A DNA stretch of 64,000 bases from an uncultured Planctomycetota bacterium. GTDB lineage: Bacteria > Planctomycetota > Brocadiia > CAIUPP01. The notes under the pieces are model-generated. The model made no database searches. It was not told where the DNA came from and worked only from the letters and a program-made list of their open reading frames with translations. The translations under genes and the position numbers were made by a program. Below are positions 7,135 through 59,155 of this stretch, piece by piece. The stretch is taken from positions 104,491 to 168,490 of the forward strand of contig CAIUPP010000021.1 of the NCBI GenBank assembly GCA_903901045.1. The letters are read 5' to 3'. Within the stretch, counting starts at the first letter, position 1, and the number at the start of each line of letters is the position of its first letter.

Positions 7135-7166
7135 AAGCGCATAAACCAGGAATAGGAGAACTCTTC

Positions 7167-11033: not shown

Positions 11034-11039
11034 GCGACC

Positions 11040-35341: not shown

Positions 35342-35370
35342 TTGACTGATTGATTGCGACCGGTTATGAT
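35342..35370 (+). promoter_or_regulatory. sigma70-like promoter TTGACT-17nt-TATGAT, with a second TATGATCA copy 24 nt downstream
   Basis: TTGACT at 35342-35347, a 17-nt spacer, then TATGAT at 35365-35370. A direct repeat of TATGATCA lies at 35389. RBS AAGGAG precedes the ATG at 35407. Confidence 0.5.
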
Positions 35371-35406
35371 CACATCAATCATTCGGCCTATGATCAAGGA
35401 GCGCAC

Positions 35407-37442: not shown

Positions 37443-38813
37443 ATGTCCGCATCATGGTGGAAGAAGGGACTTGGGGACGTTCCCCGCATGGTATGCGCCG
37501 CGCCGGGGCCGAAATCGCAGGAGTTGCACGCGCGCGCCGCGAAAATCATGAAGGGGTACTCCTCGCAGGTGAAGCTTTTCCCGGTCTGTTTCAAGGAGGG
37601 GTTTGGCGTCACTCTGACCGACGTGGACGGCAACAAATACATCGACTTCTCCAGCGGCATCTACGTGACCACGCTGGGACATTGCCACCCGAAAATCTCG
37701 GAAGCCGTGGCGCAGGCCGCGAAGACCCTGATGAATTGCCACGATTTCACCACGCCGGTCAAGACCACGCTGCTCGAAAAGCTCGTCGACATATTGCCCA
37801 GGGGGCTTGGCGGCGTGCAGTTGTACGATAGCGGAACCACCGCGGTGGAGGCGGCTGTCCGCATCGCCCGCGCCGCCAGCGGCAAGAGCGAGTTCCTCTC
37901 CTGCTTCCGCGACTTCCACGGCAAGAGCGGTCATGCCGTGAGCTTGGCCCGGATGAACAAGACCAACGGCTCGGGGCGGACGCAGGGCTTTTATATGCTT
38001 CCCCGTCCCGACCCGTACCGCCCGCTTTGGACCTTGCCGAACGGGGCGATTGACACCGACGCTTATTTCCGCTTCTACGATGAGTTCATCCTCGAAGCCA
38101 CCACGAATCAGGTTGCCGCCATCGTCCTGGAACCGATTCAGGGATGGGCCGGCTCCATCTTCCCGCCGGAGGACTTCTTTCCGAAGCTCCGGAAGTGGTG
38201 CGATGCGAAGAAGATTCTCTGGGTGGATGACGAGGTGCTCACCTGCATGGGGCGCACCGGCAAGTTCCTCTGCGCCGAGCATTGGGGCGTAACGCCCGAC
38301 ATCGTCACCCTGGGCAAGGGGTTCGGCAACGGCTTCCCCGTGACCGCGGTGGTCTGCCGGGAGGAACTCAAGGAGAGCTTCGAGAAGATCAGCGCCTCGA
38401 CCTCGTACGGCGGCAACCCGATGGCCTGCGCGGCGGCGCTGGCCTCCATCGAAGTCATCCTTGAGGAAAAACTTCTTGAAAACGCGGCGATGCTGGAGAA
38501 GTTCTTCCTCAAGCGGCTCGCGAAAATGAAGGCGGCGCATCCGATCGTTGGCGACGTGCGCTGCAAGGGGTGCCTCATGGGCGTGGAACTGGTCAAGGAC
38601 CGCGCCACCAAGGAGCCCTTCGACGAAGCGGGCAAGCTCGTGTATCAGAAGGCGTTCGCGAAGGGGCTCGCCTGGATTCCCGCCGGCCACATTCTGCGCA
38701 TGAGCCCGCCGATCATCATGGACGAGAAGATCGCGGGCAAGGCGATGGACATCATTGACGAGGCCATCGGCGAGACCGAGGCCGAACTTGGGTTCAAAGG
38801 AGGACGTTCATGA
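37443..38813 (+). CDS. class III pyridoxal-phosphate-dependent aminotransferase
   Basis: Typical AT-III architecture. The lysine in TLGKGFGNGFPV is the candidate PLP-binding residue. 456 aa. Confidence 0.85.
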   Translation: MSASWWKKGLGDVPRMVCAAPGPKSQELHARAAKIMKGYSSQVKLFPVCFKEGFGVTLTDVDGNKYIDFSSGIYVTTLGHCHPKISEAVAQAAKTLMNCHDFTTPVKTTLLEKLVDILPRGLGGVQLYDSGTTAVEAAVRIARAASGKSEFLSCFRDFHGKSGHAVSLARMNKTNGSGRTQGFYMLPRPDPYRPLWTLPNGAIDTDAYFRFYDEFILEATTNQVAAIVLEPIQGWAGSIFPPEDFFPKLRKWCDAKKILWVDDEVLTCMGRTGKFLCAEHWGVTPDIVTLGKGFGNGFPVTAVVCREELKESFEKISASTSYGGNPMACAAALASIEVILEEKLLENAAMLEKFFLKRLAKMKAAHPIVGDVRCKGCLMGVELVKDRATKEPFDEAGKLVYQKAFAKGLAWIPAGHILRMSPPIIMDEKIAGKAMDIIDEAIGETEAELGFKGGRS

Positions 38814-40654: not shown

Positions 40655-42063
40655 TGCGACGCAACGTCATGAAGCCCAAGGTTGGAATTCTCGCGCTGAC
40701 CCTTGAACTGTACGAAACGCTGGCCCCGGGCCTGCGGCAGGACCGCGTGCGATGGGTGCGGCGCGACCTGCTGCCGGCGCTGACGCCGGTCGCGGAGGTT
40801 CTCTTCGACAAGCCCTGTTTCCGGCGCGAGGAAGTGGAGGGGTGCGTCGCGCGGATGGAGGCGCAGGGGGCCGACGCCTTGCTGGTGCTACTGTTGACCT
40901 ATTCCCCCAGCTTGATCGCGCTGCCCGCCCTGCAGCGCACGCGGTTGCCCATTCTCATCTGGAACACCCAGCAGTTATGGGCGGTGGATGAGAAGTTCGG
41001 CGCCCCGGAGATGATCGCCAATCACGGCGTCCACGGCACGCAGGACCTCGCCAACGTCTTGCTGCGCAGCGGCGTGAAGTTCGAATACACCACGAGTCAT
41101 TCCTCGGACCCCGCCGCGCTGGAGGTCATCCGCGATTTCCTCTCCGCCTCGGCGGCGGTCAACCGGCTGCGCCGCTCGCGCATCGGGATGTTGGGGTACC
41201 CCTTCCCCGGCATGGGCGATTTCGGGCTGGACACCACCCACATGACGGCCACGCTCGGCTGCGAATGGACGCAACTGCCCATTGAGGAGTACCTGCTTCG
41301 CGCCGAGAAGGCCTCCGCGCGCGACGTGACCGCGCTGGTGGGGGAGTACCGCCGCGCCTACGCGGTCGCCCCCAACGTGAAGAAGACGGACCTGGATGCG
41401 ACGGCGCGAGTGGAACTGGCCCTGCGGGGTATGGTCGAGGAGCGCAAGTTGAGCGCGCTGACCTACCAGTTCACGGCGTTCGGCGAGGACGAGCGCACCC
41501 CGACGGTGCCGTTCGTCGCGGCGAGCCGCCTGATGGCTGAGGGGATCGGCTTCGGCGGCGAGGGAGACCAGATCGCCGCCGCCGGGACGAGCCTGCTGAA
41601 CTGGCTCGCCCCGCCTGCCACCTTCTCCGAAATCTTCACGATCGATTTCGCAGGGAACGCGCTCTTTATGAGCCACATGGGAGAGGCGAACGTCGCCATG
41701 GCGCGCAAGGACTGCCCCACGCCGTTGCGCGCGCGCGGCAGCGCGATCACGCGCACCCGGCGCGGTCAGCTTGCGCTGGCGGTCAGCCTGGAGCCGGGGC
41801 CGGCCACGCTGTTCGCGCTCACTTCGGGGCCGGCGGGGAAGTGGCGCTTCGTCGTCTCGCCGATGACGATCCTGGATTATCCCATCCTCGATGAGTTCCC
41901 CTGCCCGCACTTCAAGATTGCGCCCGCCGGCGACGTGCGCGACTTCCTCACCGCGTACGCGAAGGCGGGCGGCCCGCACCACAACGCTCTCTGCTTCGGC
42001 GATGCCCGCGGCCGGCTGCGGCAGGCGGCGCGATTGCTGGATGCGGATTATTTCGAGGTCTGA
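40654..42063 (+). CDS. L-arabinose isomerase / L-fucose isomerase superfamily protein
   Basis: The ATG overlaps the upstream stop (ATGA). N-terminus KPKVGILALTLELY and overall AraA-like pattern, ~470 aa. Confidence 0.65.
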   Translation: MRRNVMKPKVGILALTLELYETLAPGLRQDRVRWVRRDLLPALTPVAEVLFDKPCFRREEVEGCVARMEAQGADALLVLLLTYSPSLIALPALQRTRLPILIWNTQQLWAVDEKFGAPEMIANHGVHGTQDLANVLLRSGVKFEYTTSHSSDPAALEVIRDFLSASAAVNRLRRSRIGMLGYPFPGMGDFGLDTTHMTATLGCEWTQLPIEEYLLRAEKASARDVTALVGEYRRAYAVAPNVKKTDLDATARVELALRGMVEERKLSALTYQFTAFGEDERTPTVPFVAASRLMAEGIGFGGEGDQIAAAGTSLLNWLAPPATFSEIFTIDFAGNALFMSHMGEANVAMARKDCPTPLRARGSAITRTRRGQLALAVSLEPGPATLFALTSGPAGKWRFVVSPMTILDYPILDEFPCPHFKIAPAGDVRDFLTAYAKAGGPHHNALCFGDARGRLRQAARLLDADYFEV

Positions 42064-42109
42064 TACGACTGATCCGCCGGATCCGTCCTATCTGCCGGAG
42101 AGGCCCGTC

Positions 42110-43564
42110 ATGTTTATCGGCTTGGACTTGGGAACCACGAACGTCAAAGCGCTGCTGGTGACCCCGCAAGGGCGCGTGCTGGCGCGCGGCGCGGCGCCCA
42201 TTCCGCTTCACCGGCGGCCCGACGGCGCGGTGGAGCAGGAGATCGAGGAGATTTGGAACGCCACGCAGACGGCCATGCGCCAGGTGGGCAGCCACCCCCG
42301 CGCCCGCGACGTGCGCGCGATCGGGGTCTCAAGCCAGGGTGGGGCGATGCAGCCGCTTGACGCGGCGGGCGCGCCGGCCGGCCGCGTCATCAGTTGGCTG
42401 GATGGCCGTGGCGCGCCTTACGACCGGCAGATGGAGCGGCGGCTGGGCCTGGACTGGTTCCCTGCGCACATCGGCTTCGGCATGAGCGGCGTGTCCATCG
42501 GCCAATGCCTGCGGTTGCGCCAGGAGCAGCCGGGCCTGCTCGACTCCCCGCGCCGCATCGGCTACGTCGGCGACGTGATCGTCTCGCGCCTCTGCGGACG
42601 CCCCGCGCATGACGCCACGTCGCTCTCCATCGCCATGCTTTACAACCCCGCGCTCGGCGACGCGGATGCCGGACTGCTGCGCGAGCTGGGCCTGGAGAAA
42701 GCGCAACTGCCGCCGCTCCTCTCGCCGCGCGACTCGGCGGGCCCTCTCCGCGCGGAGGCGGCCCGCGAATGGTCCCTGCCCTCGGGCATCCCGGTCTCTC
42801 CCGCGGTGCACGACCAGTATGCGGCGGCGCTCGGGGCGGGAGTGACCGAGCCGGGCGACATGATGTTCGGCGCGGGGACCGCCTGGGTCTTGTTGGCCAT
42901 GACGGAGCGGCTCGCGCTCCCCGTTATCCCGCAGGCGATTGTCTGCCGCCATGTGGCGGAAGGAGTGTACGGCCAGATGCTGTCCATGGGGAACGGCGGC
43001 TCCTCTTTCAAGTGGGCGCTCGAACTGATCGGTCGGCCTCACGCCTGCCGCGAGGAGGTAGACGCGCTACTCAACGCCGTCCCGGCCGGAAGCGACGGCC
43101 TGCTGTTTCGTCCGCAGCTTGCGCCGTCTCAGGCGGCGGGAATGCCCGCCGGCCTGCGGGGCGGAATGGAGGGACTGCGCCTGTCCCACACCCCGGCGCA
43201 CCTGCTGCGCGCCGTCCTGGAAGGGCTGAGCCTGGAGTTGGCGCGGTACCTGGCGCTGCTGAACGGCGGGGGTATCCCCGTGCGGCGGCTGGCGCTGTGC
43301 GGCGGGGCCGCCGGCAGCGCGGTCACTCCGCAACTCGTCGCCGACGCCGTGGGCCTGCCGGTTTCATGCGTCGCGGAACCTGAGATGAGCGCGTTTGGGG
43401 CGGCGGTCATCGCGCGGGGGCTTGTGGAGCCGGGGCAATCGCTGGCCGACGTGGCGCGCTCCATGCCGGTCGAGGCCCGTCTTCTCAACCCCGGCGGGAA
43501 CCGGGCGGCGTATCAGGCGCTCTTCACGCGTTATCTCGCGCGGCTCAAAGCCGCCGCCGAGTGA
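42110..43564 (+). CDS. FGGY family carbohydrate kinase (xylulo/ribulo/rhamnulo/fuculokinase-like)
   Basis: N-terminal MFIGLDLGTTNVKA (FGGY signature 1) and C-terminal GGAAGSAV…FGAAVIA (signature 2 region). Confidence 0.85.
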   Translation: MFIGLDLGTTNVKALLVTPQGRVLARGAAPIPLHRRPDGAVEQEIEEIWNATQTAMRQVGSHPRARDVRAIGVSSQGGAMQPLDAAGAPAGRVISWLDGRGAPYDRQMERRLGLDWFPAHIGFGMSGVSIGQCLRLRQEQPGLLDSPRRIGYVGDVIVSRLCGRPAHDATSLSIAMLYNPALGDADAGLLRELGLEKAQLPPLLSPRDSAGPLRAEAAREWSLPSGIPVSPAVHDQYAAALGAGVTEPGDMMFGAGTAWVLLAMTERLALPVIPQAIVCRHVAEGVYGQMLSMGNGGSSFKWALELIGRPHACREEVDALLNAVPAGSDGLLFRPQLAPSQAAGMPAGLRGGMEGLRLSHTPAHLLRAVLEGLSLELARYLALLNGGGIPVRRLALCGGAAGSAVTPQLVADAVGLPVSCVAEPEMSAFGAAVIARGLVEPGQSLADVARSMPVEARLLNPGGNRAAYQALFTRYLARLKAAAE

Positions 43565-44534: not shown

Positions 44535-45689
44535 ATGAATGCAATAAAAGGACATAAGGCCATGACCGGACGGCAGCGGCAATTGGACACGTTGCTTTTC
44601 AGGCAACCGGACCGCATTCCTCTGGTCCCCGGCGGCGGGCGTCAGTCGACGCGCGAGGCGTGGTATCGCCAGGGGTTGCCCCGCGACGTCAAGGACATTC
44701 CGCAGTACGCCTATCGCCAGGCCGGCGGCAAGCTCGATTGGCCCACGGGCGGGCCGGGGTTCATCACAGCCGAGCGGATGATCCCCATGTTCGAAGAGAA
44801 GGTGATCGAGCGCAAAGAGCGCTCGCAGATCGTACAGGACTGGAAAGGGAACATCTGCGAGATCGGCAACGAGTTCACGACGGAGTACCTGCGCAACGCG
44901 CTGGACTTCGTCACGCGGCGGTGGGTCAAGTGCCCCGTCGAGAACGCCGCCAATTGGGAGGAGATGAAACGGCGCTATGATCCGAATACTCCGGAACGCC
45001 TTCCGGCGGACGCCGCGACCCTGGGACCGAGCCTGGCGAACCGCGAGCACTACATCGCCATTAACTTCTCGGGTCCCTTCTGGCAACTCCGGGAGTGGTG
45101 CGGATTCGAGCCGCTCTGCGTCATGCTCTACGACAACCGGCCCCTGGTGATGAAGATGCTGACGTTCTGGGAGGAGTACGTCTCGCAATTGCTGGAGCGG
45201 ACCTTCCGCTGCTTCATCCCGGACGAAGTGCATCTCTCCGAGGACATGGCGTACAAGAGCTTTTCGATGATTTCGCCCGCGATGACGCGCGAACTGCTCC
45301 TCCCCATGTACAAGCGGTGGGGGGCGATGGTCCGCAAGGCCGGCGTGCCGATTTACGCGATGGATTCCGACGGCTACGTCGGCGAACTGATCCCGATGTG
45401 GTTGGAAGCAGGCATCAACGTCTGCGATCCGATCGAGGTGGCGGCAGGAAACGACATCGTCGCCTTTCGCAAGGAGTTCGGAAAAGACATGGCCTACCGC
45501 GGCGGCGTGGACAAGCGCGCAATCGCGAAGGGGGGAGATGCAATCCTGGAGGAAATGCGGCGCATCGAGCCGGTAATCAGCGGCGGCGGCTGTATTCCCA
45601 GTTGCGACCACGGCGTGCCGTCGGATGTCTCCTGGCCCAATTATGTGCGGTTCACCGGGTTGCTGGCAAAGGCGACCGGTTGGCTCTAG
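44535..45689 (+). CDS. URO-D/MtaA family protein
   Basis: N-terminus LLFRQPDRIPLVPGGG and C-terminus GGGCIPSCDHGVPSDVSWPN, 384 aa. Confidence 0.75.
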   Translation: MNAIKGHKAMTGRQRQLDTLLFRQPDRIPLVPGGGRQSTREAWYRQGLPRDVKDIPQYAYRQAGGKLDWPTGGPGFITAERMIPMFEEKVIERKERSQIVQDWKGNICEIGNEFTTEYLRNALDFVTRRWVKCPVENAANWEEMKRRYDPNTPERLPADAATLGPSLANREHYIAINFSGPFWQLREWCGFEPLCVMLYDNRPLVMKMLTFWEEYVSQLLERTFRCFIPDEVHLSEDMAYKSFSMISPAMTRELLLPMYKRWGAMVRKAGVPIYAMDSDGYVGELIPMWLEAGINVCDPIEVAAGNDIVAFRKEFGKDMAYRGGVDKRAIAKGGDAILEEMRRIEPVISGGGCIPSCDHGVPSDVSWPNYVRFTGLLAKATGWL

Positions 45690-45898: not shown

Positions 45899-45927
45899 TT
45901 GACAACAAGTAACCAATCGGTTATAAG
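45899..45927 (+). promoter_or_regulatory. sigma70-like promoter TTGACA-17nt-TATAAG upstream of TetR gene
   Basis: TTGACA at 45899-45904, a 17-nt spacer, then TATAAG at 45922-45927. AAGGAGAGG follows at 45937-45945. Confidence 0.55.
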
Positions 45928-45947
45928 TGAGTTCAAAGGAGAGGCCG

Positions 45948-46586
45948 TTGGCGAAAGTGCGCAAGAAGCAGGTGCGGGATGCGGAGGGAAGCCGGAGGAG
46001 GCTTCTTGAGGCGGGGCTCAAGGTGTTCTCCGAGCGCGGCCCGGCCGGCGGGTCGGTCTCCATGATTGCGCGCGAGGCCGGCATCAATCGCCGGATGCTC
46101 TACCACTACTTCGGGAGCAAGGAAGGTCTCTATCGCGCCGCGTTTCGCCACGCCTACGAGCAGTTATCCTTCGCGGAGATCGGCCTCGCCGACATGGCGT
46201 TGAGCGCCGAGGAACTCCTGGCGCGTTTGATCCGGCACTATGCCGAGTTCCATGCCACGCACCCGCACCACGTGCGGCTGCTGATGTGGGAAAATTTGCG
46301 GCAAGGGAAGGCGGCCAGAGAGTTGCACATCGGCGACATCAAGGCGCCGATCATGGAAGCGCTGCGCGCCGCCCTCGACCGGGGCAGGCGCGAAGGGCGC
46401 TTCCGGGCCGACGTCGATGAGCGGCGGCTGCTCATCAGTTGCATGGCGCTGAGCTTCTTCTGCCACTCGAACCGCTACACCATCGCCGAGGCGCTCGGCA
46501 GCGACCTGGGGGACGGGGAAGTGGCCAGGGCGCAGGTCGAGCACAATGTCAAGATGGTCCTGGATGGAATCCGCACCCGAGGCTGA
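45948..46586 (+). CDS. TetR/AcrR family transcriptional regulator
   Basis: HTH (VSMIAREAGINRRMLYHYFGSKEGLY). The tool ORF starts at a GTG at 45927, which lies inside the -10. TTG at 45948 or GTG at 45957, after the SD, are more plausible starts. Confidence 0.75.
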   Translation: MAKVRKKQVRDAEGSRRRLLEAGLKVFSERGPAGGSVSMIAREAGINRRMLYHYFGSKEGLYRAAFRHAYEQLSFAEIGLADMALSAEELLARLIRHYAEFHATHPHHVRLLMWENLRQGKAARELHIGDIKAPIMEALRAALDRGRREGRFRADVDERRLLISCMALSFFCHSNRYTIAEALGSDLGDGEVARAQVEHNVKMVLDGIRTRG

Positions 46587-46603: not shown

Positions 46604-49261
46604 ATGAAGGTTGACCTCGCAGGGATGTCCCTGCCGGTTCAGGTGGGGGGGCTGACGTTCAGGAATCCCTTCTATGTCGGCTCCGGGCCGACCTCCAAGT
46701 CCATCGAGCATCTGGTCAAGGCGGACGAACTGGGGTGGGCCGGCGCCAGCATCAAGCTGACTTTCGACCCCGCGCCGTACGTCAGCCTCGACCCGCGCTA
46801 CGGCTGGTTCGAGGATCAGGGGTTCCTCTCCTTCAGCGCGGAAACTCGCCTCGATATCGGGGAGGGGCTCGAACTGGTTCGCCAGGGGCGCAAGCAGTGC
46901 CGCCCCGACTTCCTCATCATGGCCAACATCACCTACGTCGGAGAGAAGCCGGGCGTGCAGGGCTGGGTGGATATGGCCCGTCGTTTTGAGGAGGCCGGCG
47001 CGCACATCGTCGAACTGAACATGTGCTGCCCGAACATGAGCTACAACGTGCGCCTCAGCGACACGCAGGACACCGCGCACCAGACCGGGGCCAGCCTCGG
47101 CCAGAACGCGGAGGCGCTGGGCCACATCGTGGGGGAAGTGCGCAAGGGGATTGGGATACCGCTCTTCGTCAAGCTCACCCCCGAAGGGGGCCGCATCGCG
47201 CAGGTTGCCAAGGCCTGCTTCGAGGCGGGCGCGGATGCCGTCGGAGGGACCGCCAACCGCCTCGGGGTTCCGCTGGTCGACCTGGACAATCCCGTCAAGT
47301 CGCCGTACCAACTCCAGAAAGAGCCGAGCATGAGTTGCCTGTGCGGCCCCTGGCTCCGTCCGCTGGCCTTTCGCGACGTGTATGAAATGCGCAAGCTGGT
47401 CGGCCCGAAGCCCCGCTTGACCTGCGCCGGCGGCATCATGGACCTGCGCGACTGCGTCACGGCGGTCTCCTGCGGGGCCGACTTGCTCGTCGTCTGCAGC
47501 GGCATTCTGCTCAAAGGCTTCGAGATGCTGCCTCCCCTCATGGCCGACATCAAGGCGTACCTGAAGGAGAAGAATCTCAAGCACCTCTCCGACCTGCGCG
47601 ACGGCCTCGTGCAGACCATCACCCCGGCGAACAAACTCACCGTCTTCAAGGGATATGCCCGCAAGAAGAGCGACTTCCTGCGCGGGCCGTGCCAGGCTGC
47701 CTGCCCGTTCAGCGTCCCGGCGCAGGACTATGTCACGCTCATCGCGGAGGGGGACTTCCAGCGCGCCTATCGCATGATCACCAGCCGGAACCCGCTCCAA
47801 TCCATCTGCGGCTGGGTGTGCAGCCATCCCTGCGAGAGCGAATGCACGCGCGCGCTTGCCGACGAGCCGCTCCGCATCCGCGACCTGAAGCGTTTCGTGC
47901 TGGAATACGGCCTCCGGAAGGGCTGGAAGCCCGACATCGACCGCGCCGCGCCGCGCTGCGAGAAGGTGGCGGTGATCGGCGCAGGCCCGGCGGGGCTGAG
48001 CGCCGCCTGGCATCTCGCGCGCGCGGGGTACAAGGTGACCGTGTTCGAGGCCCAATCGAAAGCGGGCGGCATGTTGCGCTGCGCCATCCCGCGTTTCCGC
48101 CTTCCGATGGCCGTCCTGGATGCTGAGATCGCGGCCGCCAGATCGCTCGGCGTGGAATTCCGCATGGGGCAGAAATTCGGCGCGGAGGTTACGCACAAGA
48201 GCCTCAAGGCGGAAGGTTTCAAGACCACCGTCCTGGCCATCGGCGCTTCGGTCGGCCTGCCGCTGGGCGTGCCCGGCGAGGAGGCCCAGGGCTGCCTTTC
48301 CGCGCTCGAATTTCTTGGCAAGGCCGCAAAGAGCCGGAAGGCGGGCGTGGGTCGGCGCGTGGCGGTCGTCGGCGGCGGCTTTACGGCGGTGGACGCGGCG
48401 CGCACGGCGCGGCGGCTTGGGGCCGCGGAGGTCTATATCCTCTATCGCCGCACGCGCAACGAAATGCCGGCGACCTCCGAAGAGATGGACGAAGCGGAGG
48501 CCGAAGGGGTGAAGATCATGTACCTAGTCTCCCCCAGGGAAGTGCTCAGCCGGAATGGGAAAGTCGTGGGCATCCGCATGGTCAACCACGTCCTGGCCGA
48601 ACGCGACGCCTCCGGTCGACGCCGGCCCGCCGAGGTGGAGGGCACGGAATTCATTCTGAAAGTGGACGCCATCATCAGCGCCGTCTCGCAGAAGGTCGGC
48701 CAGGGGGCGCAGGAATTGGGCGTGCGGCTGGCGAAAGGGGCCATTGCCACGCGAAGCGACGACGTCAGCACGAACGTGCTTGGTGTATTCGCCGCGGGCG
48801 ACGCGACCGCCGGGCCCGATAGCGTCATTGCCGCGGTCGCCTCGGGCTACCGCGCCGCCGTGGCGGCGGACGCCTCCATCGCCGGCCGGAAGGCGTTTCT
48901 CGAAGCCGACCCGATCCTGACCCCGGCCGACAAGGCGCTGGTGCTGAGGCGCAACGCAAAGCTCGTCCGGCGAGACCGCATCGCCCCGCAACTGCGACCC
49001 GCGGCGGAGCGTGCGCGCGACTTCGATGTGATCCAGGCCGTCATGACCGAGGCGGAAGCCGTGGCGGAGGCGAGCCGATGCCTTCGATGCGGATGCTCGG
49101 TCACCTGCGGCCTGTGCGCGCGCGTCTGTTCCTCCTTCGCCATCGCGCCGGAGGGGAATGGCCGGCAGGAGCGCATCGACCGGCAGAAATGCCACGCCTG
49201 CGGCATGTGCGCGCAGTTGTGCCCGAACCGGAATATCGAGATCGTGGCGGAGACAACTTAA
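46604..49261 (+). CDS. single-chain dihydropyrimidine dehydrogenase-like oxidoreductase: N-terminal DHODH/DPD-type FMN TIM barrel + GltD-like FeS/FAD/NAD(P)H domains + C-terminal 2x[4Fe-4S] ferredoxin
   Basis: ATG at 46604 with AAGGAG 8 nt upstream. FRNPFYVGSGPTSKSIEHLVKADELGWAGASIKLT is the DPD/DHODH barrel. GltD-type Cys cluster region (CPFSVPAQDYV…). Dinucleotide fold KVAVIGAGPAGLSAAWHLARAGYKVTVFE. C-terminal ferredoxin cluster (CLRCGCSVTCGLCARVC…CHACGMCAQLCP). Confidence 0.8.
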   Translation: MKVDLAGMSLPVQVGGLTFRNPFYVGSGPTSKSIEHLVKADELGWAGASIKLTFDPAPYVSLDPRYGWFEDQGFLSFSAETRLDIGEGLELVRQGRKQCRPDFLIMANITYVGEKPGVQGWVDMARRFEEAGAHIVELNMCCPNMSYNVRLSDTQDTAHQTGASLGQNAEALGHIVGEVRKGIGIPLFVKLTPEGGRIAQVAKACFEAGADAVGGTANRLGVPLVDLDNPVKSPYQLQKEPSMSCLCGPWLRPLAFRDVYEMRKLVGPKPRLTCAGGIMDLRDCVTAVSCGADLLVVCSGILLKGFEMLPPLMADIKAYLKEKNLKHLSDLRDGLVQTITPANKLTVFKGYARKKSDFLRGPCQAACPFSVPAQDYVTLIAEGDFQRAYRMITSRNPLQSICGWVCSHPCESECTRALADEPLRIRDLKRFVLEYGLRKGWKPDIDRAAPRCEKVAVIGAGPAGLSAAWHLARAGYKVTVFEAQSKAGGMLRCAIPRFRLPMAVLDAEIAAARSLGVEFRMGQKFGAEVTHKSLKAEGFKTTVLAIGASVGLPLGVPGEEAQGCLSALEFLGKAAKSRKAGVGRRVAVVGGGFTAVDAARTARRLGAAEVYILYRRTRNEMPATSEEMDEAEAEGVKIMYLVSPREVLSRNGKVVGIRMVNHVLAERDASGRRRPAEVEGTEFILKVDAIISAVSQKVGQGAQELGVRLAKGAIATRSDDVSTNVLGVFAAGDATAGPDSVIAAVASGYRAAVAADASIAGRKAFLEADPILTPADKALVLRRNAKLVRRDRIAPQLRPAAERARDFDVIQAVMTEAEAVAEASRCLRCGCSVTCGLCARVCSSFAIAPEGNGRQERIDRQKCHACGMCAQLCPNRNIEIVAETT

Positions 49262-49301: not shown

Positions 49302-50366
49302 ATGAAAGATATCGTCCGCGTTGGCGTTGTCGGCTCCAAGTTCGCCGCCGACTTCCATTGCGACTCCTACAGCCGGAACCCGTTCGCCAGGGTCGTCGCC
49401 ATCGCCGCCATCGACAACCTGGAGCCGATATCGAAGAAGTGGGGCATCCCCGATACCTACCTCGACTACCATGAGATGCTCGCGCGACGGGACATCGACC
49501 TCGTCTCGGTGTGCGTGCCGAACTTCCTGCACCGCGAGGTCGTCCTCGCCGCTGCCAAAGCCGGCAAGCACGTTCTGTGCGAGAAGCCGCTGGCCACCGA
49601 AATCGAGCACGGTCGCGAAATGCTCGACGCCGTCCGGAAAGCCGGCGTCAAACTCTTCTACGGCGAAGACTGGGTCTTCTCGCCCTCGCTGCGTCGCGTC
49701 GAAGCGGTGCTGGCCGAAGGGGCCGTCGGCGAGGTCCTCTATGTCAAAGCGAAGGAATGCCACAACGGCACGCACAGTCCGTTCGCGAAGAACAAGCAGA
49801 CCTGCGGCGGCGGCTCGCTGATGCACCTGGGCATACACCCCGTCGGTTGGGTGCTCCATCTTCTCGGCCAGAGCGGGCGCAACAAGGTCACGGAAGTCAC
49901 AGGCTTTTGCAACGGCGGCGCGGCGGATAATTTCGTTCATAAAGACAACACGGGCGAGGACTTCGGGCTGGGCGTCATGAAGTTCGCCGGCGGCCAGCGC
50001 GCCTTCATCGAAGGCAACTACATCACCGTGGGCGGCATGGACGACCGGGTTGAGATCTACGGGACGCAGGGGGTCATCAAGGTCGACCTCACACAGGGCT
50101 CCAATGTCGACGTGTATAGCCGCCCCGGCTACTCCTATTGGATCGAGAAAGCTGACAACGCGGTCGGTTGGACCAAACCCGCCGTGGATGAGTTCTACAA
50201 CCTCGGGTACGTGGACGAACTGCACTATGCCGTGGAGTGCGTGCGCAATGACGTTCAGCCCATGTACGGCTGTTCCGGCCAGCTTGGCCTGGCCTGCGTC
50301 GAGATCATCAAGGCCATGTACGGTTCAAGCGAAAGAGGGGAGACGGTCCGGGGCACGTGGGGATGA
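49302..50366 (+). CDS. Gfo/Idh/MocA family oxidoreductase
   Basis: ATG at 49302 with GGAG 6 nt upstream. Motifs VRVGVVGSKFAADFH and AGKHVLCEKPLA. Confidence 0.85.
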   Translation: MKDIVRVGVVGSKFAADFHCDSYSRNPFARVVAIAAIDNLEPISKKWGIPDTYLDYHEMLARRDIDLVSVCVPNFLHREVVLAAAKAGKHVLCEKPLATEIEHGREMLDAVRKAGVKLFYGEDWVFSPSLRRVEAVLAEGAVGEVLYVKAKECHNGTHSPFAKNKQTCGGGSLMHLGIHPVGWVLHLLGQSGRNKVTEVTGFCNGGAADNFVHKDNTGEDFGLGVMKFAGGQRAFIEGNYITVGGMDDRVEIYGTQGVIKVDLTQGSNVDVYSRPGYSYWIEKADNAVGWTKPAVDEFYNLGYVDELHYAVECVRNDVQPMYGCSGQLGLACVEIIKAMYGSSERGETVRGTWG

Positions 50367-50408: not shown

Positions 50409-51599
50409 ATGAGTGTGCATGTTTCACCGGACCAGATGCAGCGCGCGGAGCAGTTCGTCCGAAAGGTCAAAGGGCCGGACGGCCTGGCGGTCGTCGACTT
50501 TGAGAAATTCTGGGCAGCGCATGAGAACGCGCTCCGGAGTCCCTGGGACGCCGCTTGCCGGCAAGTGCCGTTGGGGCTGGCCGGCATGAGCATCGAGTGC
50601 GTCTGGGCGGAACTGGGGGAGCCGGAGGACTGGCATCGCCTCTCGCACGACGATGCTTTCAGCGCCGCGCTTGCCCGCCGCTACAACGATCAGGCCGAGC
50701 GGATCGTCGGCCGCCGGCTCCTTCGGGAGGAGAATGCCCCGCGCCGCCTTCCCGCGCCGCCCATCAAAGGGCTTCACGATATTTTCGAATCCGAGAACCG
50801 GTGGGAGGGGCAATCGTACTGGCTCAAGCAATCCGCCGCGAACGCCGGGGAGCTTTCCGCCCTGCTGGACCGCGTGGAGCGGCGGCTGGAGAATCTGCGC
50901 GACTTCCTTCTGCCCGGCGGCTGGGAAACGGTCAAGCGCGCGCACCTCGACGCCGGTGGGAAGATCATGCCCTATCGCAGCCAGCGCGGGCCGGTCACGT
51001 TTGCCATGTCGATCTTCGGCGTGGAGAACCTGATCTACCTGATCATGGACAATGCCGCGCTTGCCGCGCGTTTCCGCGACCTGCTCCTCAAGTCAATCCT
51101 CGAACGCGCCCGCATCATTGACGAGGAAGCCGGCTTCACTGCGGAGACCGCTCCGCGCCGTTGGAGTTGGGCGGATGACAACTGCGCCTTGCTCAACAAG
51201 GAGATGTACGACTTCTTCGCGCAGCCGATCCTGAAGGGCGTGTTCGACCGGCACGCTTCCGGGCCGAACGACGTGCGCTATCAGCATTCCGACTCCGACA
51301 TGGCGCAGCACCTGCCCACCCTGGGGCGGCTGGGTTTGAGCGGCGTCAACTTCGGTCCCAACCTCACCGTGGCCGAGATTCGCAGCCACCTCCCACGCGC
51401 GATTATTTACGGGCAGATCGCTCCGTTCACTTTCTGCCGCAATGAGGAAGTGAACATCGTCGCGGAGTTTCTTCGCGACCGGGAGATGGCGCGCGAGAAA
51501 CGCGGCCTGGTCTTCACCACCGCGGGATCGATCAACGACGGCTCCCGCTTGAGCAGCCTGCGTCTGCTCATGGCCGCGGCGCAGGAGTTCACGTACTGA
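50409..51599 (+). CDS. URO-D/MtaA family protein (divergent)
   Basis: The central and C-terminal pattern (VTFAMSIFGVENLIYLIMDNAALAARFRDLL…, IIYGQIAPFTF) fits the URO-D family. The N-terminal ~120 aa are atypical. Confidence 0.55.
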   Translation: MSVHVSPDQMQRAEQFVRKVKGPDGLAVVDFEKFWAAHENALRSPWDAACRQVPLGLAGMSIECVWAELGEPEDWHRLSHDDAFSAALARRYNDQAERIVGRRLLREENAPRRLPAPPIKGLHDIFESENRWEGQSYWLKQSAANAGELSALLDRVERRLENLRDFLLPGGWETVKRAHLDAGGKIMPYRSQRGPVTFAMSIFGVENLIYLIMDNAALAARFRDLLLKSILERARIIDEEAGFTAETAPRRWSWADDNCALLNKEMYDFFAQPILKGVFDRHASGPNDVRYQHSDSDMAQHLPTLGRLGLSGVNFGPNLTVAEIRSHLPRAIIYGQIAPFTFCRNEEVNIVAEFLRDREMAREKRGLVFTTAGSINDGSRLSSLRLLMAAAQEFTY

Positions 51600-51616: not shown

Positions 51617-52381
51617 CTAGGCCGCTCCGATGCAGAAGATCTCGTTCTTCGCTTCGATCCGTCGGATGGCGCCGTAGTGGGGCGCGCAACTCTCCTGACC
51701 GGGGGTGGGGGAGAGAGTGAACGCGGCCAGTTCCGCCCAACCCCAATCATTGTAGACGACGTACGCGGGGGCAAATTGTGTCACCGCCAACCCCGCAGTC
51801 ATGGGGCGCACCGCGGCCAGGACGCGGCCGGTATCCACTTGCCAGCGGCGCTGGGCGCGCGGCACGTTGCAGATGCGAATCGGGTAATCCATGACCACCT
51901 GCGTCTTGCCGTCCTCGTGGAGATAGGTGGTGCGCCCGTTGAGCGGCCGGTTGCCGAGAATGGCCTCGCGGATTTCGTCGTACTCCACCAGCTTGCGCGC
52001 CTGGGAGAACTCCACCATGCTGATGTCGATGCGCAGGATGGCCGAGCCCTTGCCGTCGTGAGTGGACATGCGTTCCCCCACGCGGCGCGCCTCGCAGAGG
52101 CCGGGCCGGGCGGAAGAAAAGTCCTTCATGATCATGTAGTCGCTGCGCGAGGCGATCATCAGGAATTCCGATGCCGGCTCCTGCGTCAGATTCTTCGGCA
52201 CATACATGTTCTCCGAGATGCAGCCGGCGTTCAGGACGTACTCGCATGCGCTCCCGTCCGGGGCGACCAGCCGGCACGTGGCGTCAATCTGCGCGCGCGG
52301 CGTGTGATCAGTATGGTCCGTCGTGAACTGCAGAAAACTGCGCATGTAATCCGTCTTGTTCATGAGTTTCAGAGCCTCCAC
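51617..52381 (-). CDS. hypothetical protein
   Basis: 254-aa ORF with GTG start (alternative ATG at ~52363), convergent with the upstream + strand gene. No recognisable motif. Confidence 0.45.
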   Translation of the reverse strand: MEALKLMNKTDYMRSFLQFTTDHTDHTPRAQIDATCRLVAPDGSACEYVLNAGCISENMYVPKNLTQEPASEFLMIASRSDYMIMKDFSSARPGLCEARRVGERMSTHDGKGSAILRIDISMVEFSQARKLVEYDEIREAILGNRPLNGRTTYLHEDGKTQVVMDYPIRICNVPRAQRRWQVDTGRVLAAVRPMTAGLAVTQFAPAYVVYNDWGWAELAAFTLSPTPGQESCAPHYGAIRRIEAKNEIFCIGAA

Positions 52382-52400: not shown

Positions 52401-53480
52401 TTAACTGGCGGCCTTGGCGAGTTCCGGCCTGGCCCAGCAGTGCACCTGGCCGCGGAGCTTCCGGCCCGCTGCCAGCGCCCGCGCCGCCCATTCCGGATTG
52501 AAGCCGGTGAGTTTGATCCCCTTGTCGACCGTGTGGCGGTAGATCACCTCCATGTCGTTGTAGCGCGGCTGGCTCATGGCCACATTGGAAAGGCCGCGCA
52601 TGGCGGACAGACTCTCGACGTAGTGGTCGCCCCGCCCGCAGAAATGGATCCCGCCGCCGCCGAACGCATCCAGCAGCCGCTGTTCATGCGGTTTGATGAA
52701 CTCATCGAACATCTTCGGCGAAAAGTTCATGGCCGAATCGCTGCGCAGCATGAGGGTCCCCTTCTGGAGCGCCCCCCAGTGGAAGCTGTAACCCTCGATG
52801 GGCGCGGGGACGATGCGGAGCCACTCGCGCAGAAAGGCGATGTAGGTCTCGCACACCAGGCCGAGGAAGCGCTGGACCAGGTCGGGATACTCGAACAGGT
52901 CCGTGAAGAGGCTGCTGCCCCAGATGACCTCGGATACATCCATCGCGCCCTGCAGGTCGGGGTGGTAGAGCTGAACGTACTTGCCGATCTTCGGGTAGCG
53001 CTGCTTGATCTCCATCAACCGCTTGCCCATCTCGAAGGTCCTGGCCCCCAGGCTTTGGTGGCAATCGGGCACACCGCGGGCGACGAGGCGGCGGATGGCC
53101 TCCACGTCGTGCAGCGGCAGGGAGGTGGGTAGCGTGTTCTGGTCGCGCTCCATCATGAAGATCCGCGCGCCGAAGAGGCTGGGGAGGATGCTGGTCCCGT
53201 AGTTGGAACGCACCATCATGATGGCGCCGGTGGCCCGCTCCAGCGCTTCCGAACAGCCGGCGAATTGAGACAGCGCCATGAGGTCGTAATCCTCGATGGC
53301 GTCGTTGATCAGCACCTTCGGCCACGCCACTTTGGGGGGGGCGGCCTTCGGGCGCGCCGGGACGAAGACCTCTCCCTGGAAGCGATTGTCCGTGAAGTCC
53401 TGCCAGCTCCTGAGCAGTTGCTCCTCAACTTCGGCGTCAATGCGGTCTTCGAGGTCCTGCAGGTACGTGTCAATCTGCAT
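52401..53480 (-). CDS. URO-D/MtaA family protein
   Basis: Start at MQIDTYLQDL (ATG; purine-rich stretch upstream). Family pattern through the C-terminus (GGGGIHFCGRGDHYVESL). The longer upstream ORF extension is low-complexity and Arg-rich. Confidence 0.7.
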   Translation of the reverse strand: MQIDTYLQDLEDRIDAEVEEQLLRSWQDFTDNRFQGEVFVPARPKAAPPKVAWPKVLINDAIEDYDLMALSQFAGCSEALERATGAIMMVRSNYGTSILPSLFGARIFMMERDQNTLPTSLPLHDVEAIRRLVARGVPDCHQSLGARTFEMGKRLMEIKQRYPKIGKYVQLYHPDLQGAMDVSEVIWGSSLFTDLFEYPDLVQRFLGLVCETYIAFLREWLRIVPAPIEGYSFHWGALQKGTLMLRSDSAMNFSPKMFDEFIKPHEQRLLDAFGGGGIHFCGRGDHYVESLSAMRGLSNVAMSQPRYNDMEVIYRHTVDKGIKLTGFNPEWAARALAAGRKLRGQVHCWARPELAKAAS

Positions 53481-53484
53481 GATG

Positions 53485-54291
53485 CTATTCTTTCTTCCCG
53501 GCCTGCTGCCCGGCGGCGTAAGGGAAGCCGGGGTGCCATGGAACCTTCGCCAGCGAGAGCAGGAATTCGGACAGCCCGGCGGCGCCGCTCTCCACGATTT
53601 CGCGCCCGCGTTCGGCGCTTGCCTTCTCAACCACCCCCCCGCCGCCCAGCGGCAGGAAGCGGTCCCACGGGCGGACGAAGTAGGTCTGGTCCAGATGGAC
53701 CAGACCGGCATCCGGCTCCGCGATCGGGAGATTCCGCAAATGCTCATTGCGCACAAGCTCCGGGCGCAGGTACATCATCTGCGACGTCTCGCTCTCCCCG
53801 CCGTGCGGGGAGGGATGTTCGATCAGGCGTTTGCTGCGGTCGGCAAATATCCCGGGCGTCATGCAGACGAAAGAGCGCCGTTCGATGGGGGTGCGGTCGA
53901 AATGCTCGCGGAGCGTTGCGCGCATGGCGTCGGTATTGCCGCCGTGCCCGTCGAACAGAACGACCTTGCGGATGCCATCCTCCTCGACCGCCTGGATGAC
54001 GTCGAGCAGCATGAGCATCAGCGTGCGCACCGTCACGCGGCACGCAAAGGGAAAGGGCTTGAAGTTGACATTGTTGCCGATCGGCAGGGTGGGGTACATC
54101 AACACGCGCCCCCCGCGCTGGTTGGCCAGTTCCGTGGCGCGCCGGCAGAGCGCGTCCGATTCAAAGTAATCGGCGCCGTAGGGCAATGCGGGGCCGTGCG
54201 GTTCGGTGGACCCGACGCCGAGCAGCACGATCTCCGGGGCGAACGCCCGCACTTCCGGAAGAGTCATTTCAGAAAGAATTCCCGTGTTCAT
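53485..54291 (-). CDS. creatininase family amidohydrolase
   Basis: IVLLGVGSTEPHGPALPYGADY matches the creatininase metal-binding signature (VGSxExHGxHLPxxTD). Confidence 0.8.
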   Translation of the reverse strand: MNTGILSEMTLPEVRAFAPEIVLLGVGSTEPHGPALPYGADYFESDALCRRATELANQRGGRVLMYPTLPIGNNVNFKPFPFACRVTVRTLMLMLLDVIQAVEEDGIRKVVLFDGHGGNTDAMRATLREHFDRTPIERRSFVCMTPGIFADRSKRLIEHPSPHGGESETSQMMYLRPELVRNEHLRNLPIAEPDAGLVHLDQTYFVRPWDRFLPLGGGGVVEKASAERGREIVESGAAGLSEFLLSLAKVPWHPGFPYAAGQQAGKKE

Positions 54292-54388: not shown

Positions 54389-56542
54389 TCAGGGGCTGGC
54401 GTGACGCCGCAGTTCCTCGACGATCCAGGGGGCCGTCAGCTCCACCCCCTCCCGGTCGTTCGCGCGCATGAACGTGGCATTCTCATACATGGTGAACCCA
54501 TCCGCGCCGCCTTCGAGCGCCTCGTTGATCAGATGCGCAACCCATTGCCGGTCCTGATCGGCGGGCGGCAGCGCCGGGCAGAAATTCACCGGCAGCCCCG
54601 CCTTGGCGGCGATCGCTGCGGCCACCGCGCCGGGGGCGTTGCGCATCCCCGCCATCTTGATCGTCACCTCGTCCAGCAAGCCCTCCGCGATCCACCCGCG
54701 CCAGTCGAAGTGCATCTCCATCTCCGTGTGCCAGCGCGGATCGCCCATGCGCGCCGAGATGTGCGCCTGGGCGCTCAGGCCCGCCTGGCGCAACCGCGCG
54801 ACGGCGCGGCGCAGGAAACTCGTGTAGAATTCCCCCCGGAGCCGCCGCCACGACTCGCGGTCGAACGGCTCACGCAGAATATCCACGCCGTAGCGCTCCT
54901 TGAACGCCCGCACCACGGGCGGGTTGAACCCGAAGGCGCTCCAGTCGAACGTGCGGTTGTGGTTGACGATTCGGAAATCGATGCCGTCCACCCCCGCGTC
55001 GATGCAGTTCTCCACCTGGCTCATCGCCCAGTCCTGGACTTCATCATGGCCGAAACAGAGCGCGCCTTGGAGATATCGTTCACGCCCGAGGGCCACGCCC
55101 AGCGGCTTTGGGCCGTCAAGCCATGCGTAATCCTCCGACGCTCCGACGTTGTTGTCGGGGACGTCCACCACCAATCCCCACGCGCGCCAGTCCGCGCCCT
55201 GCTGGCGGGGGCGGTTGGCGAAGGTGACCGGCAGCGCGCGCCCTTGCTCGTCCCGCACCTCAATCAGGTCGCGCAGCCGGTTGCCGAAAGAGCGCGTCGG
55301 CGCGCCTTCGACCGTGACGGCGAAGAACCGCTCCGGGATGGCCAGGCCATCGAGCGTCAGGGTGACGGCGTCGCGCCGCTCCATCCGCACCGCCATCGGA
55401 CCCGCATAAGGCTTGTAACGTCCATTGTCGCGGCTGGTCCAGAGGCGCACGCGGGCGGGGTCCAGTTCGGCCTTCAACCCCGGCTCCGCCTTCAGGACGA
55501 TGGTGCGCACGCTCCGCTGATCCAGGTCGGCCGGAACGTCGCTCACGTCGCGTTCGATGCGCAAGGCGGAGTTCTGAGCAACCCAGTCCAAGCTCATCCA
55601 GATGGGACCGCCCAGGCGCGGTATCTTGCCGTAGCGCCGCGCCATTTGGGACCCCTCGGAGAAAGTTCCGGTGGGCAGGGCGTAGGCGGTATCGAAAGGC
55701 TTGAGAACGGCGTAGATGGGCAACCCCGCGCAATGGGCCGCTTGCACGGTCGCGGGCAGGAAGTCGCCGACGCTCTCCCGCGTGCGCCGGATGTTCTCCT
55801 GAAGGCCGGGAAAGTCCTGCGCGCTGCCGGACTGGTCCCAGAAACCTCCCCGGCTGCCGTAGTCGTAAATGAAGTAGAGGCGTTTCACGCGATTGGCCTT
55901 GTAGAGTTCCATGGCCGCGCGAAACGTCTTCTCGCTCCAGGCGTTCAGGATGATGTCATCGTAGAAATCGATGCAGGCGTAAAGGTTGTAGGCGCTGCGC
56001 GGGGGCAGGGGGCGCAACTCACCCGCCTGGGGAACTCCCTCGACCTGAAAAGCGTGCAGAACTGCGCCCGCCGACAACTCCAGGCTCACGTCCAGCACCA
56101 GTTCGCCGGGAACCGGATCTTCCGCATCCAGGAGCGCGACGCCATCCACGGAGAGGCGCAGCCGTCCCCCGGTGCGCTCGCAGAGCAGCGTGCGGCGGAC
56201 GTCCGGGGAGAGATTGGAAAGTCCCGTGACCGCCACGACCCAATGCGCCAGTTGGACGCGCGCAGCCGGATTCTCCCGGTTGCCGGGGCTGAACGAATAG
56301 CGCGACGCCTCAATCCGCACCGTGCCGGTCACCTGGCAGGTGACGCGGAATTCGGACAGTCCGGGGAGGGGGAAGCGGCGCGTGAGCCAGGTGGAGGCCG
56401 CAGCGCAATGCCCTTCGGGACGCTGCACGAGCGCGCCGAAGAGCGTGTTCCATGAAGCTTCCACCGGTTGGGACGCTTCGATGGAGGCGTACTGCCGCCA
56501 GCCGTCGTGCTTGACCAAAGCGAGTCCTTCTTTCTCGTTCAA
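54389..56542 (-). CDS. putative glycoside hydrolase-like TIM-barrel protein (GHL10/DUF-type)
   Basis: 717 aa, TTG start (uncertain). Long (beta/alpha)8-like region with conserved acidic residues. No confident family call. Confidence 0.5.
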   Translation of the reverse strand: MNEKEGLALVKHDGWRQYASIEASQPVEASWNTLFGALVQRPEGHCAAASTWLTRRFPLPGLSEFRVTCQVTGTVRIEASRYSFSPGNRENPAARVQLAHWVVAVTGLSNLSPDVRRTLLCERTGGRLRLSVDGVALLDAEDPVPGELVLDVSLELSAGAVLHAFQVEGVPQAGELRPLPPRSAYNLYACIDFYDDIILNAWSEKTFRAAMELYKANRVKRLYFIYDYGSRGGFWDQSGSAQDFPGLQENIRRTRESVGDFLPATVQAAHCAGLPIYAVLKPFDTAYALPTGTFSEGSQMARRYGKIPRLGGPIWMSLDWVAQNSALRIERDVSDVPADLDQRSVRTIVLKAEPGLKAELDPARVRLWTSRDNGRYKPYAGPMAVRMERRDAVTLTLDGLAIPERFFAVTVEGAPTRSFGNRLRDLIEVRDEQGRALPVTFANRPRQQGADWRAWGLVVDVPDNNVGASEDYAWLDGPKPLGVALGRERYLQGALCFGHDEVQDWAMSQVENCIDAGVDGIDFRIVNHNRTFDWSAFGFNPPVVRAFKERYGVDILREPFDRESWRRLRGEFYTSFLRRAVARLRQAGLSAQAHISARMGDPRWHTEMEMHFDWRGWIAEGLLDEVTIKMAGMRNAPGAVAAAIAAKAGLPVNFCPALPPADQDRQWVAHLINEALEGGADGFTMYENATFMRANDREGVELTAPWIVEELRRHASP

Positions 56543-59066: not shown

Positions 59067-59155
59067 TGAAAACATCCTCCAAGTGCATAGGGGTGGCGCG
59101 GTTATTCGGCTCCCGGGGACGGGGGCCGTTCCAGCTTCGCGCGTGCGCCGCCTCA

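Follow-up and report, generated by a model that had tools for sequence, protein, structure and literature searches.

A widespread subfamily of DPD/YgfK-type iron-sulfur flavoenzymes with an altered active-site pocket and a conserved sugar dehydrogenase partner

Introduction

What does a single-chain relative of dihydropyrimidine dehydrogenase (DPD) reduce when it is encoded beside a sugar dehydrogenase gene? The question is raised by a 64,000-nucleotide stretch of DNA from an uncultured Planctomycetota bacterium (assembly GCA_903901045.1, contig CAIUPP010000021.1, positions 104,491 to 168,490), referred to here as the window, which encodes at 46604-49261(+) an 885-aa protein that we call X. 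To our knowledge, the substrates established for enzymes of the dihydroorotate dehydrogenase (DHOD)/DPD type are limited to pyrimidine rings and, from 2025 on, purine rings. The original prediction, made from the sequence of the window, described X as a circularly permuted, DPD-like C=C reductase acting on an unsaturated sugar acid or related compound rather than on pyrimidines. The analysis reported here shows that X represents a real, widespread subfamily of DPD/YgfK-type iron-sulfur (FeS) flavoenzymes, which have a dehydrogenase as their conserved partner and whose pocket is not of the pyrimidine type. We put the chances at somewhat better than even that X is a C=C reductase, probably NADPH-dependent, that acts on a carbohydrate-derived intermediate and not on a pyrimidine.

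Domain architecture of X and comparison with known enzymes

The open reading frame (ORF) of X is uninterrupted and starts at an ATG eight bases past AAGGAG. By Pfam, X comprises DHO_dh (residues 10-319), Fer4_20 (362-439), Pyr_redox_2 (454-748) and a 4Fe-4S dicluster domain (834-878); the order is a DHOD/DPD-type barrel, then Fer4_20, then the flavin adenine dinucleotide (FAD)/NAD(P)H domains, then a C-terminal dicluster ferredoxin domain, just as predicted, and the NCBIfam matches and the layout of an AlphaFold model agree. The model, with 30 homologues as input, has a mean predicted local distance difference test score of 84 and shows a TIM barrel followed by a GltD-like module; its low-confidence regions are the active-site loops (residues 60-77, 144-159 and 218-220). 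The NCBIfam PreA profile (NF006183) matches residues 10-352 over its positions 4-337 of 422 with 165.7 bits, below its cutoff of 335 and with PreA's own ferredoxin domain not covered. The PRK12771 profile (NAD(P)-binding FeS flavoprotein) matches residues 361-883 over positions 48-565 of 566 with 472.3 bits, just under its cutoff of 516, and the N-terminal barrel of X lies outside that family.

X has the same cofactor domains and FeS motifs as DPD (the pig enzyme and E. coli PreT/PreA), for flavin mononucleotide (FMN), FAD and NAD(P)H, and the four [4Fe-4S] clusters of DPD would be expected in X as well, though two canonical Cys ligands of Fer4_20 are missing. The barrel of X most resembles DPD domain IV (6.9e-21 against pig DPD residues 529-847) and PreA. 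Where DPD is ordered I-II-III-IV-V, or is divided between the two subunits PreT and PreA, X reads IV-I-II-III-V in one chain. X is a domain rearrangement relative to DPD; the earlier description holds insofar as X is a single-chain, rearranged, DPD-like protein, but it is not strictly a circular permutation, which would read IV-V-I-II-III.

The novelty implied for this order does not hold up, because the same order is found in a characterized protein, E. coli YgfK, which was shown in 2025 to be an NAD(P)H-dependent 2,8-dioxopurine reductase and for which structural modeling proposed DPD-like FMN and FAD sites (PMC12507026; bioRxiv 10.1101/2025.04.24.650524). YgfK has the barrel, Fer4_20, FAD/NAD(P)H (Pyr_redox_2) and C-terminal dicluster domains arranged as in X, its N-terminal domain being shown here to be a DHOD/DPD-type barrel, and the barrel-first single-chain layout already has a characterized representative in this enzyme. 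YgfK, which reduces a C=C bond of its heterocyclic substrate (PMC12507026), is 34% identical to X over X residues 356-874, carries the same 'YRR(S/T)' NAD(P)H motif and has C-terminal clusters with which those of X align. Unlike the rest of the chain, the two barrels are not detectably similar in sequence (hhalign of the N-terminal domains: E 0.009, probability 4.5%), and YgfK is ~150 aa longer; the YgfK/DOPOR model TIGR03315 scores X at 349 bits against a cutoff of 835, over profile positions 444-935 only, i.e. the C-terminal two thirds. The ygfK gene clusters with ssnA, xdhD, hyuA and ygeW (also ygeY and ygeX), whereas SsnA, XdhD, HyuA and YgeY homologues were looked for and not found near X in 88 loci. 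X is a second, sequence-distinct lineage with the YgfK layout, its barrel being much closer to that of PreA/DPD.

The remaining relatives differ more plainly from X. Class 1 PyrD models give at best 88.8 bits, where their cutoffs are 269-270; X retains the NxxCPN motif and has Ala/Ser in the column of the orotate-binding Asn after strand 3. Over residues 361-883, X shares 34-37% identity (E 1e-94 to 1e-110) with NfnA of NfnABC and with the StnABC large subunit (chain C), in their NfnB-like part, but these subunits have N-terminal ferredoxin and C-terminal molybdopterin-like domains, and X has an N-terminal FMN barrel instead. PydAc and UacX, which act on uracil and 2,8-dioxopurine, respectively (PMC7332683, PMC12507026), are ferredoxin-dependent and consist of barrel and ferredoxin domains only, whereas X has an NAD(P)H/FAD module between the two.

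Distribution and limits of the X family

Two-subunit PreT/PreA systems do exist, and a frameshift or assembly error that fused a PreA-like with a GltD-like gene could produce an ORF of this kind. We count nothing else in favor of such an artefact and rejected it, regarding its probability as negligible, on three grounds: a protein identical to X is present on independent metagenomic contigs; more than 120 full-length homologues (~883 aa, 50-80% identity) conserve the inter-domain junction 'GYARxKxxxLxAPCxxACP'; and scanning one genome per species gave at least 581 matches. The carriers belong to Planctomycetota, Kiritimatiellae, Victivallales/Lentisphaerae, Bacteroidales, Clostridia, Acidobacteriota, KSB1, Armatimonadota and candidate phyla; they are anaerobic polysaccharide degraders, the hosts being strict anaerobes, and the single cultured carrier found is Ruminiclostridium cellobioparum DSM 1351, whose operon reads Gfo-X-2HADH-SDR-NagB-FGGY (2HADH, 2-hydroxyacid dehydrogenase).

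When the family was delimited by its barrel (clustering at 50%), the barrel proved to be a discrete family, whose members share at least 43% identity, whereas PreA-like proteins (~395 aa) reach no more than 35%. Short relatives of 405-445 aa (43-46% identity) keep the CCPNMS and ANRLG motifs and contain the barrel and the dicluster ferredoxin domain only, exactly the PydAc/PreA layout; they are probably ferredoxin-dependent versions of X. Among these short relatives (P0251-P0255; L090, L091), one is encoded two genes from a Gfo/Idh/MocA gene and another within a cluster of sugar ABC transporter, SIS and FmdA_AmdA genes. Lower down among the barrel matches come single-chain bacterial DPDs (~850 aa) with the canonical domain order.

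Active site and cofactor motifs

The active site of X was mapped by alignment to pig DPD (529-847) and E. coli PreA, together with conservation within the family. The barrel motifs are K51, N139, C141-C142-P-N144, K190 and N218-R219, of which K51, N139, C142 and K190 correspond to Lys574, Asn668, Cys671 and Lys709 of DPD. The catalytic Cys142 lies within an invariant N-M-C-C-P-N-M-S motif, and the presence of C671A/S mutants of DPD in the Protein Data Bank confirms the role of its DPD counterpart.

The pocket is different. The pyrimidine-contacting side chains of DPD, as we take them from the pig DPD structures, include Asn609, Asn736 and Thr737. In X the Asn609 column is occupied by Ala79 (or Ser76, depending on the alignment) and the 'ATNT' motif has become 'TANR', with N218 invariant and R219 nearly invariant; the pyrimidine-site residues of DPD domain IV are thus only partly conserved. 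A 12-residue insertion follows CCPN in the active-site Cys loop, and new family invariants (E80, R82, N144, N148, Q238 and E240) appear near pocket positions. Since two of the four pyrimidine-contacting side chains are gone and charged residues appear, the substrate of X is probably different from a pyrimidine, and probably anionic. From the alignment, we infer that R82 and R219 would be positioned at the substrate site.

The NAD(P)H motif of X, 'YRRT', resembles the 'YRRS' of YgfK rather than the 'VARE' of the NADH-dependent PreT, which suggests NADPH as the more likely donor. Fer4_20 opens at 'PC363xxxC367P', the two upstream Cys of PreT being absent; the loss of the first two Cys of the canonical CxxCxxxPCxxxCP (47687-47710, X residues 362-369) is family-wide. 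Of the ten Cys that are invariant in the C-terminal ferredoxin domain, eight would be enough for that domain; the surplus ones might serve, across domains, to complete the first cluster of Fer4_20.

Genomic context of the X family

The dominant neighbor of X is a gene for a Gfo/Idh/MocA dehydrogenase (hereafter Gfo), as seen in a survey in which all ORFs of 88 X loci were clustered; 85 of these loci are non-redundant, and 42 have at least 4 kb on each side (well-flanked). Gfo is adjacent to X on the same strand in 56 of the 85 non-redundant and 34 of the 42 well-flanked loci, in at least 8 phyla, with a median intergenic gap of 31 nt. The partners form one orthogroup, whose median identity (50%) matches that of X (51%); Gfo co-evolves with X. 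Its nearest solved relatives are the sugar/cyclitol secondary-alcohol dehydrogenases KanD2, GenD2, Thermotoga TM0414 and DgpA.

Sugar-acid enzymes are encoded near X in 25 of the 42 well-flanked loci. A short-chain dehydrogenase/reductase (SDR) scoring above the D-mannonate oxidoreductase cutoff (360 vs 281 bits) is found in 18, a GhrB-like 2-hydroxyacid dehydrogenase in 13, a 2-keto-3-deoxy-6-phosphogluconate (KDPG) aldolase in 12, a PfkB protein resembling 2-keto-3-deoxygluconate (KDG) kinase in 8, a NagB-like protein in 8, a gluconokinase-like FGGY kinase in 5 and Ldh_2 in 4. The adjacent, equally diverging Gfo partner and the KDG/KDPG neighbors indicate that the substrate of X is probably sugar-derived and not a pyrimidine.

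A second group of neighbors, missed in the original prediction, acts on nitrogen. A creatininase-family hydrolase (10 loci), a protein like ornithine carbamoyltransferase (OTCase; 7 loci) or Amidohydro_3 (7 loci) is present in 23 of the 42 well-flanked loci, and the three are nearly mutually exclusive (loci L005-L087), the sole co-occurrence being that of the creatininase-family and OTCase-like genes in one locus; the OTCase-family neighbors score below the ornithine carbamoyltransferase cutoff. In Bacteroidales, a class-III aminotransferase and a second Gfo fill the operon slot of Amidohydro_3 (L044 compared with its sister locus L046). The slot swaps and mutual exclusivity indicate that the nitrogen-removing enzymes are peripheral and that Gfo-X is the core; the alternation of amide- and amine-removing enzymes with aminotransferases suggests that the starting compounds of the pathway carry nitrogen.

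Classical pathways left few traces. Dihydropyrimidinase/hydantoinase, beta-ureidopropionase-type proteins, M20 peptidase, carbamate kinase, SsnA and XdhD are not encoded within 10 kb of X in any of the 88 loci, and a BLAST search of these loci with E. coli HyuA, YgeY, YqeA, SsnA, XdhD and GuaD (YgeW and YgeX were not among the queries) returned one weak guanine-deaminase-like ORF only; we therefore rejected a classical pyrimidine or purine pathway context. The view that X is unlikely to be a pyrimidine dehydrogenase is borne out by this absence of Pyd-type genes as well as by the changed pocket. For an unsaturated sugar acid as substrate the outcome is mixed: the sugar-acid context is conserved, and comparative genomics supports the broader idea of a C=C reductase in sugar-acid metabolism, but a link to lyase-derived 4,5-unsaturated uronates is not supported, as KduI, UxaA, UxaC and UxuA are absent from the 88 loci (only KduD-like SDRs occur there) and ORF clustering found no lyase family that recurs in these neighborhoods.

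The operon and its surroundings

The TetR, X, Gfo and uroporphyrinogen decarboxylase (URO-D)-like genes of the window are separated by gaps of 17, 40 and 42 nt, short enough to look like one operon (Table 1). The regulator and the dehydrogenase are where they had been predicted, upstream and downstream of X. The TetR protein likely regulates the X operon; in at least 13 other loci, including some from distant phyla, X or Gfo-X likewise follows a TetR_C_29 regulator gene. The best NCBIfam match of the window's TetR protein is RutR, the pyrimidine-utilization repressor, which it matches over the full length at 58 bits against a cutoff of 368. The predicted pairing of Gfo with URO-D is partly upheld: the weak Pfam match is there, but the gene has no NCBIfam match and is not beside X in other lineages, and we rejected it as a partner of X. 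Methyltransferases with the URO-D fold exist, and a role of this protein in O-demethylation is conceivable. In the operon of a close relative, a HepT/MNT-type toxin-antitoxin pair lies between the OTCase-like and Gfo genes (L093 12913-13553).

Table 1. Coordinates of X, its domains and neighboring genes in the window
Feature	Position	Strand	Evidence and remarks
X, single-chain FeS flavoprotein	46604..49261	+	ORF, ribosome-binding site, Pfam/NCBIfam domains, homologues, AlphaFold model
N-terminal FMN TIM barrel, X residues 10-352	46631..47659	+	DHO_dh 9.8e-17; PreA profile; pig DPD alignment
Fer4_20 domain, X residues 362-439, Cys363/367/402/406/410/414	47687..47920	+	PF14691 6.4e-21; PreT and YgfK alignment
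FAD and NAD(P)H Rossmann domains, X residues 454-748	47963..48847	+	Pyr_redox_2 1.4e-30; GAGPAG, GGGFTAVD, 'YRRT'
C-terminal dicluster ferredoxin domain, X residues 826-878	49079..49237	+	Fer4, Fer4_9 and Fer4_7 matches; 10 family-invariant Cys
TetR-family regulator (TetR_N and TetR_C_29)	45927..46586	+	Pfam; 17 nt upstream of X
Gfo/Idh/MocA NAD(P)-dependent sugar dehydrogenase	49302..50366	+	Pfam; conserved partner of X
URO-D-like protein	50409..51599	+	PF01208 weak, 29 bits; last gene of apparent operon
Creatininase-family (PF02633) hydrolase	53485..54291	-	Pfam 3.2e-47; same cluster in 15 loci
Class-III aminotransferase	37443..38813	+	Pfam; second Gfo/Idh/MocA gene at 35350-36549

The creatininase-family hydrolase of the window is related to the IolN, MftE and creatininase models, all below cutoff. 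An inositol pathway of the Thermotoga type, with IolG/IolN-like Gfo and creatininase-family enzymes, was considered and set aside, the similarities being suggestive but all below cutoff and X having no role in it; it is a lead only. The class-III aminotransferase and second Gfo have counterparts directly after X-Gfo in the Bacteroidales loci L044, L055, L066 and L040. An upstream triad of Amidohydro_2, AraA-like isomerase and FGGY kinase genes (39584-43564) is also found near NagB-Gfo-X in a metagenome-assembled genome (MAG) of a gut Eubacteriales bacterium (L058).

Proteins with giant LamG-domain, GH95-like, right-handed beta-helix (two) and DUF1559/N-methyl (prepilin-like) features are encoded at 3976-14102, 25065-28190 and 56586-60448, and these features and the GC content of ~64% are typical of a polysaccharide degrader of the Planctomycetota/PVC group. 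The 'polysaccharide lyase' that had been read into the locus amounts to the two beta-helix proteins, with weak Pel9A-like/DUF1565 matches, ~18 kb upstream and ~7 kb downstream; with these weak matches and no recurring lyase cluster, we rejected a link of X to a polysaccharide lyase. Neither Pfam nor NCBIfam matched the sizeable flanking ORFs at 44535-45689, 51617-52381(-), 52401-53480(-) and 54389-56542(-); the only relative of the first of these, a 384-aa ORF, lies near the X locus of a Bacteroidia MAG (L083).

Discussion

The cofactor domains of X suggest a cytoplasmic, oxygen-sensitive FeS flavoenzyme that would work like DPD and YgfK. NAD(P)H, more likely NADPH, would reduce the FAD of the GltD-like module, and the electrons would travel singly, by way of the Fer4_20 and C-terminal ferredoxin [4Fe-4S] clusters, to the FMN in the N-terminal barrel, where a hydride from FMN and Cys142 acting as the acid would saturate a carbonyl-conjugated C=C bond; the reverse reaction, introducing a C=C bond, is also possible. 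The substrate would be an anionic, carbohydrate-derived keto/enone intermediate made or consumed by the adjacent Gfo. In such a pathway, modified and possibly nitrogen-bearing sugar derivatives would be trimmed to a common intermediate by interchangeable entry enzymes (creatininase-like, Amidohydro_3, OTCase-like, or aminotransferase with a second Gfo), Gfo would oxidize a secondary alcohol of this intermediate, and X would then act on the conjugated C=C bond; Gfo-X would be the constant core, from which SDR or 2-hydroxyacid dehydrogenases would lead on to KDG kinase and KDPG aldolase. The catabolism of GlcNAc1A provides a precedent for an amidohydrolase and KDG kinase route for an N-acyl sugar acid (PMC9537276). 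A more specific version, which we offer tentatively and hold to be distinctly less probable than the general function, is that Gfo makes a keto-sugar (acid) and that, once a hydroxyl, amino or N-acyl group has been eliminated, X saturates the resulting enone to give KDG-type 2-keto-3-deoxy acids without the classical dehydratases and isomerases.

Several observations weigh against a carbohydrate-derived substrate. No specific enone sugar intermediate can be named, and no conserved dehydratase or lyase able to create the C=C bond was found near X, where about half of the flanking ORFs are unannotated. The OTCase-like, creatininase-like, Amidohydro_3 and Ldh_2 neighbors fit ureide catabolism as well as sugar catabolism, and in several loci (L094, L007, L056, L060) X stands by itself or only with TetR and Gfo, sugar-acid genes being absent. 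The placement of R82 and R219 comes from the alignment, and the model loops there are of low confidence. A literature search found no paper on the X family and no characterized member of it.

The main competitor, to which we give perhaps one chance in five, makes X a DPD- and YgfK-like reductase of an N-heterocycle, namely a cyclic ureide or lactam. Ring opening would then fall to the creatininase-family or Amidohydro_3 enzyme, removal of the ureido group to the OTCase-like protein (compare YgeW/UacY in urate breakdown) and removal of the amine to the class-III aminotransferase; a hydroxylated side chain or sugar moiety would be left to Gfo and the sugar-acid enzymes. The two characterized relatives have heterocyclic substrates (PMC12507026, PMC7332683), the proteins closest to X are encoded in TetR-X-OTCase-like(-creatininase-Gfo) operons, the alternation of OTCase-like and Amidohydro_3 genes mirrors the YgeW/UacY swap described in PMC12507026, the Ldh_2 neighbors resemble ureidoglycolate dehydrogenase, and RutR, though weak, is the best full-length match of the regulator. 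Yet it is the nitrogen-processing genes that vary and exclude one another, while Gfo is constant; the 88 loci lack homologues of hydantoinase, dihydropyrimidinase, M20 peptidase, carbamate kinase, SsnA and XdhD; Asn609 is lost, and invariant Arg and Glu residues are gained; and a small heterocycle poorly explains the KDG kinase, KDPG aldolase and mannonate oxidoreductase neighbors.

Both further alternatives are improbable, each far more so than the ureide reductase. An ordinary DPD, reducing uracil or thymine in an unusual fused form, would account for PreA and pig DPD as the best matches of the barrel and for the conserved catalytic Cys, Asn668 and both FMN lysines, and the canonical-order single-chain bacterial DPDs show such fusions to be common; but the PreA score is far under its cutoff, the identity gap separates the family from PreA-like proteins, Asn609 and the ATNT motif are not conserved, and Pyd pathway genes are near none of the 88 loci, so that an ordinary DPD or DHOD function is unlikely. 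Alternatively, X could bifurcate or be coupled to ferredoxin, the oxidation of NADPH at FAD being split between C=C reduction at FMN and reduction of ferredoxin through the C-terminal clusters. That NfnABC and StnABC, which bifurcate, contain in their NfnB-like part the best match of the GltD-like half, with FAD modules alike in sequence and fold, that short barrel-plus-ferredoxin forms exist which are probably ferredoxin users like PydAc (PMC7332683), and that the hosts live strictly anaerobically would fit such a coupling; against it stand an apparently single linear cluster chain, the lack of a second, NfnA-like acceptor module in X or its conserved neighbors, and the use of the same module by DPD, GltD and YgfK, which do not bifurcate.

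Implications

The architecture of X is already known; what is new is a widespread subfamily with an altered pocket and a sugar dehydrogenase partner, embedded in KDG/KDPG operons. The cultured carrier Ruminiclostridium cellobioparum DSM 1351 makes its function testable. If the substrate of X is another heterocycle, the family would represent a third branch of reductive N-heterocycle catabolism. If it is carbohydrate-derived, X would be the first DHOD/DPD-family enzyme that acts on a carbohydrate, extending the chemistry of this family, and would fill a gap in the processing of modified, possibly nitrogen-bearing sugars by anaerobic gut, digester and sediment bacteria; Gfo-X would then be the core of an unrecognized anaerobic carbohydrate pathway in hundreds of uncultured polysaccharide degraders.

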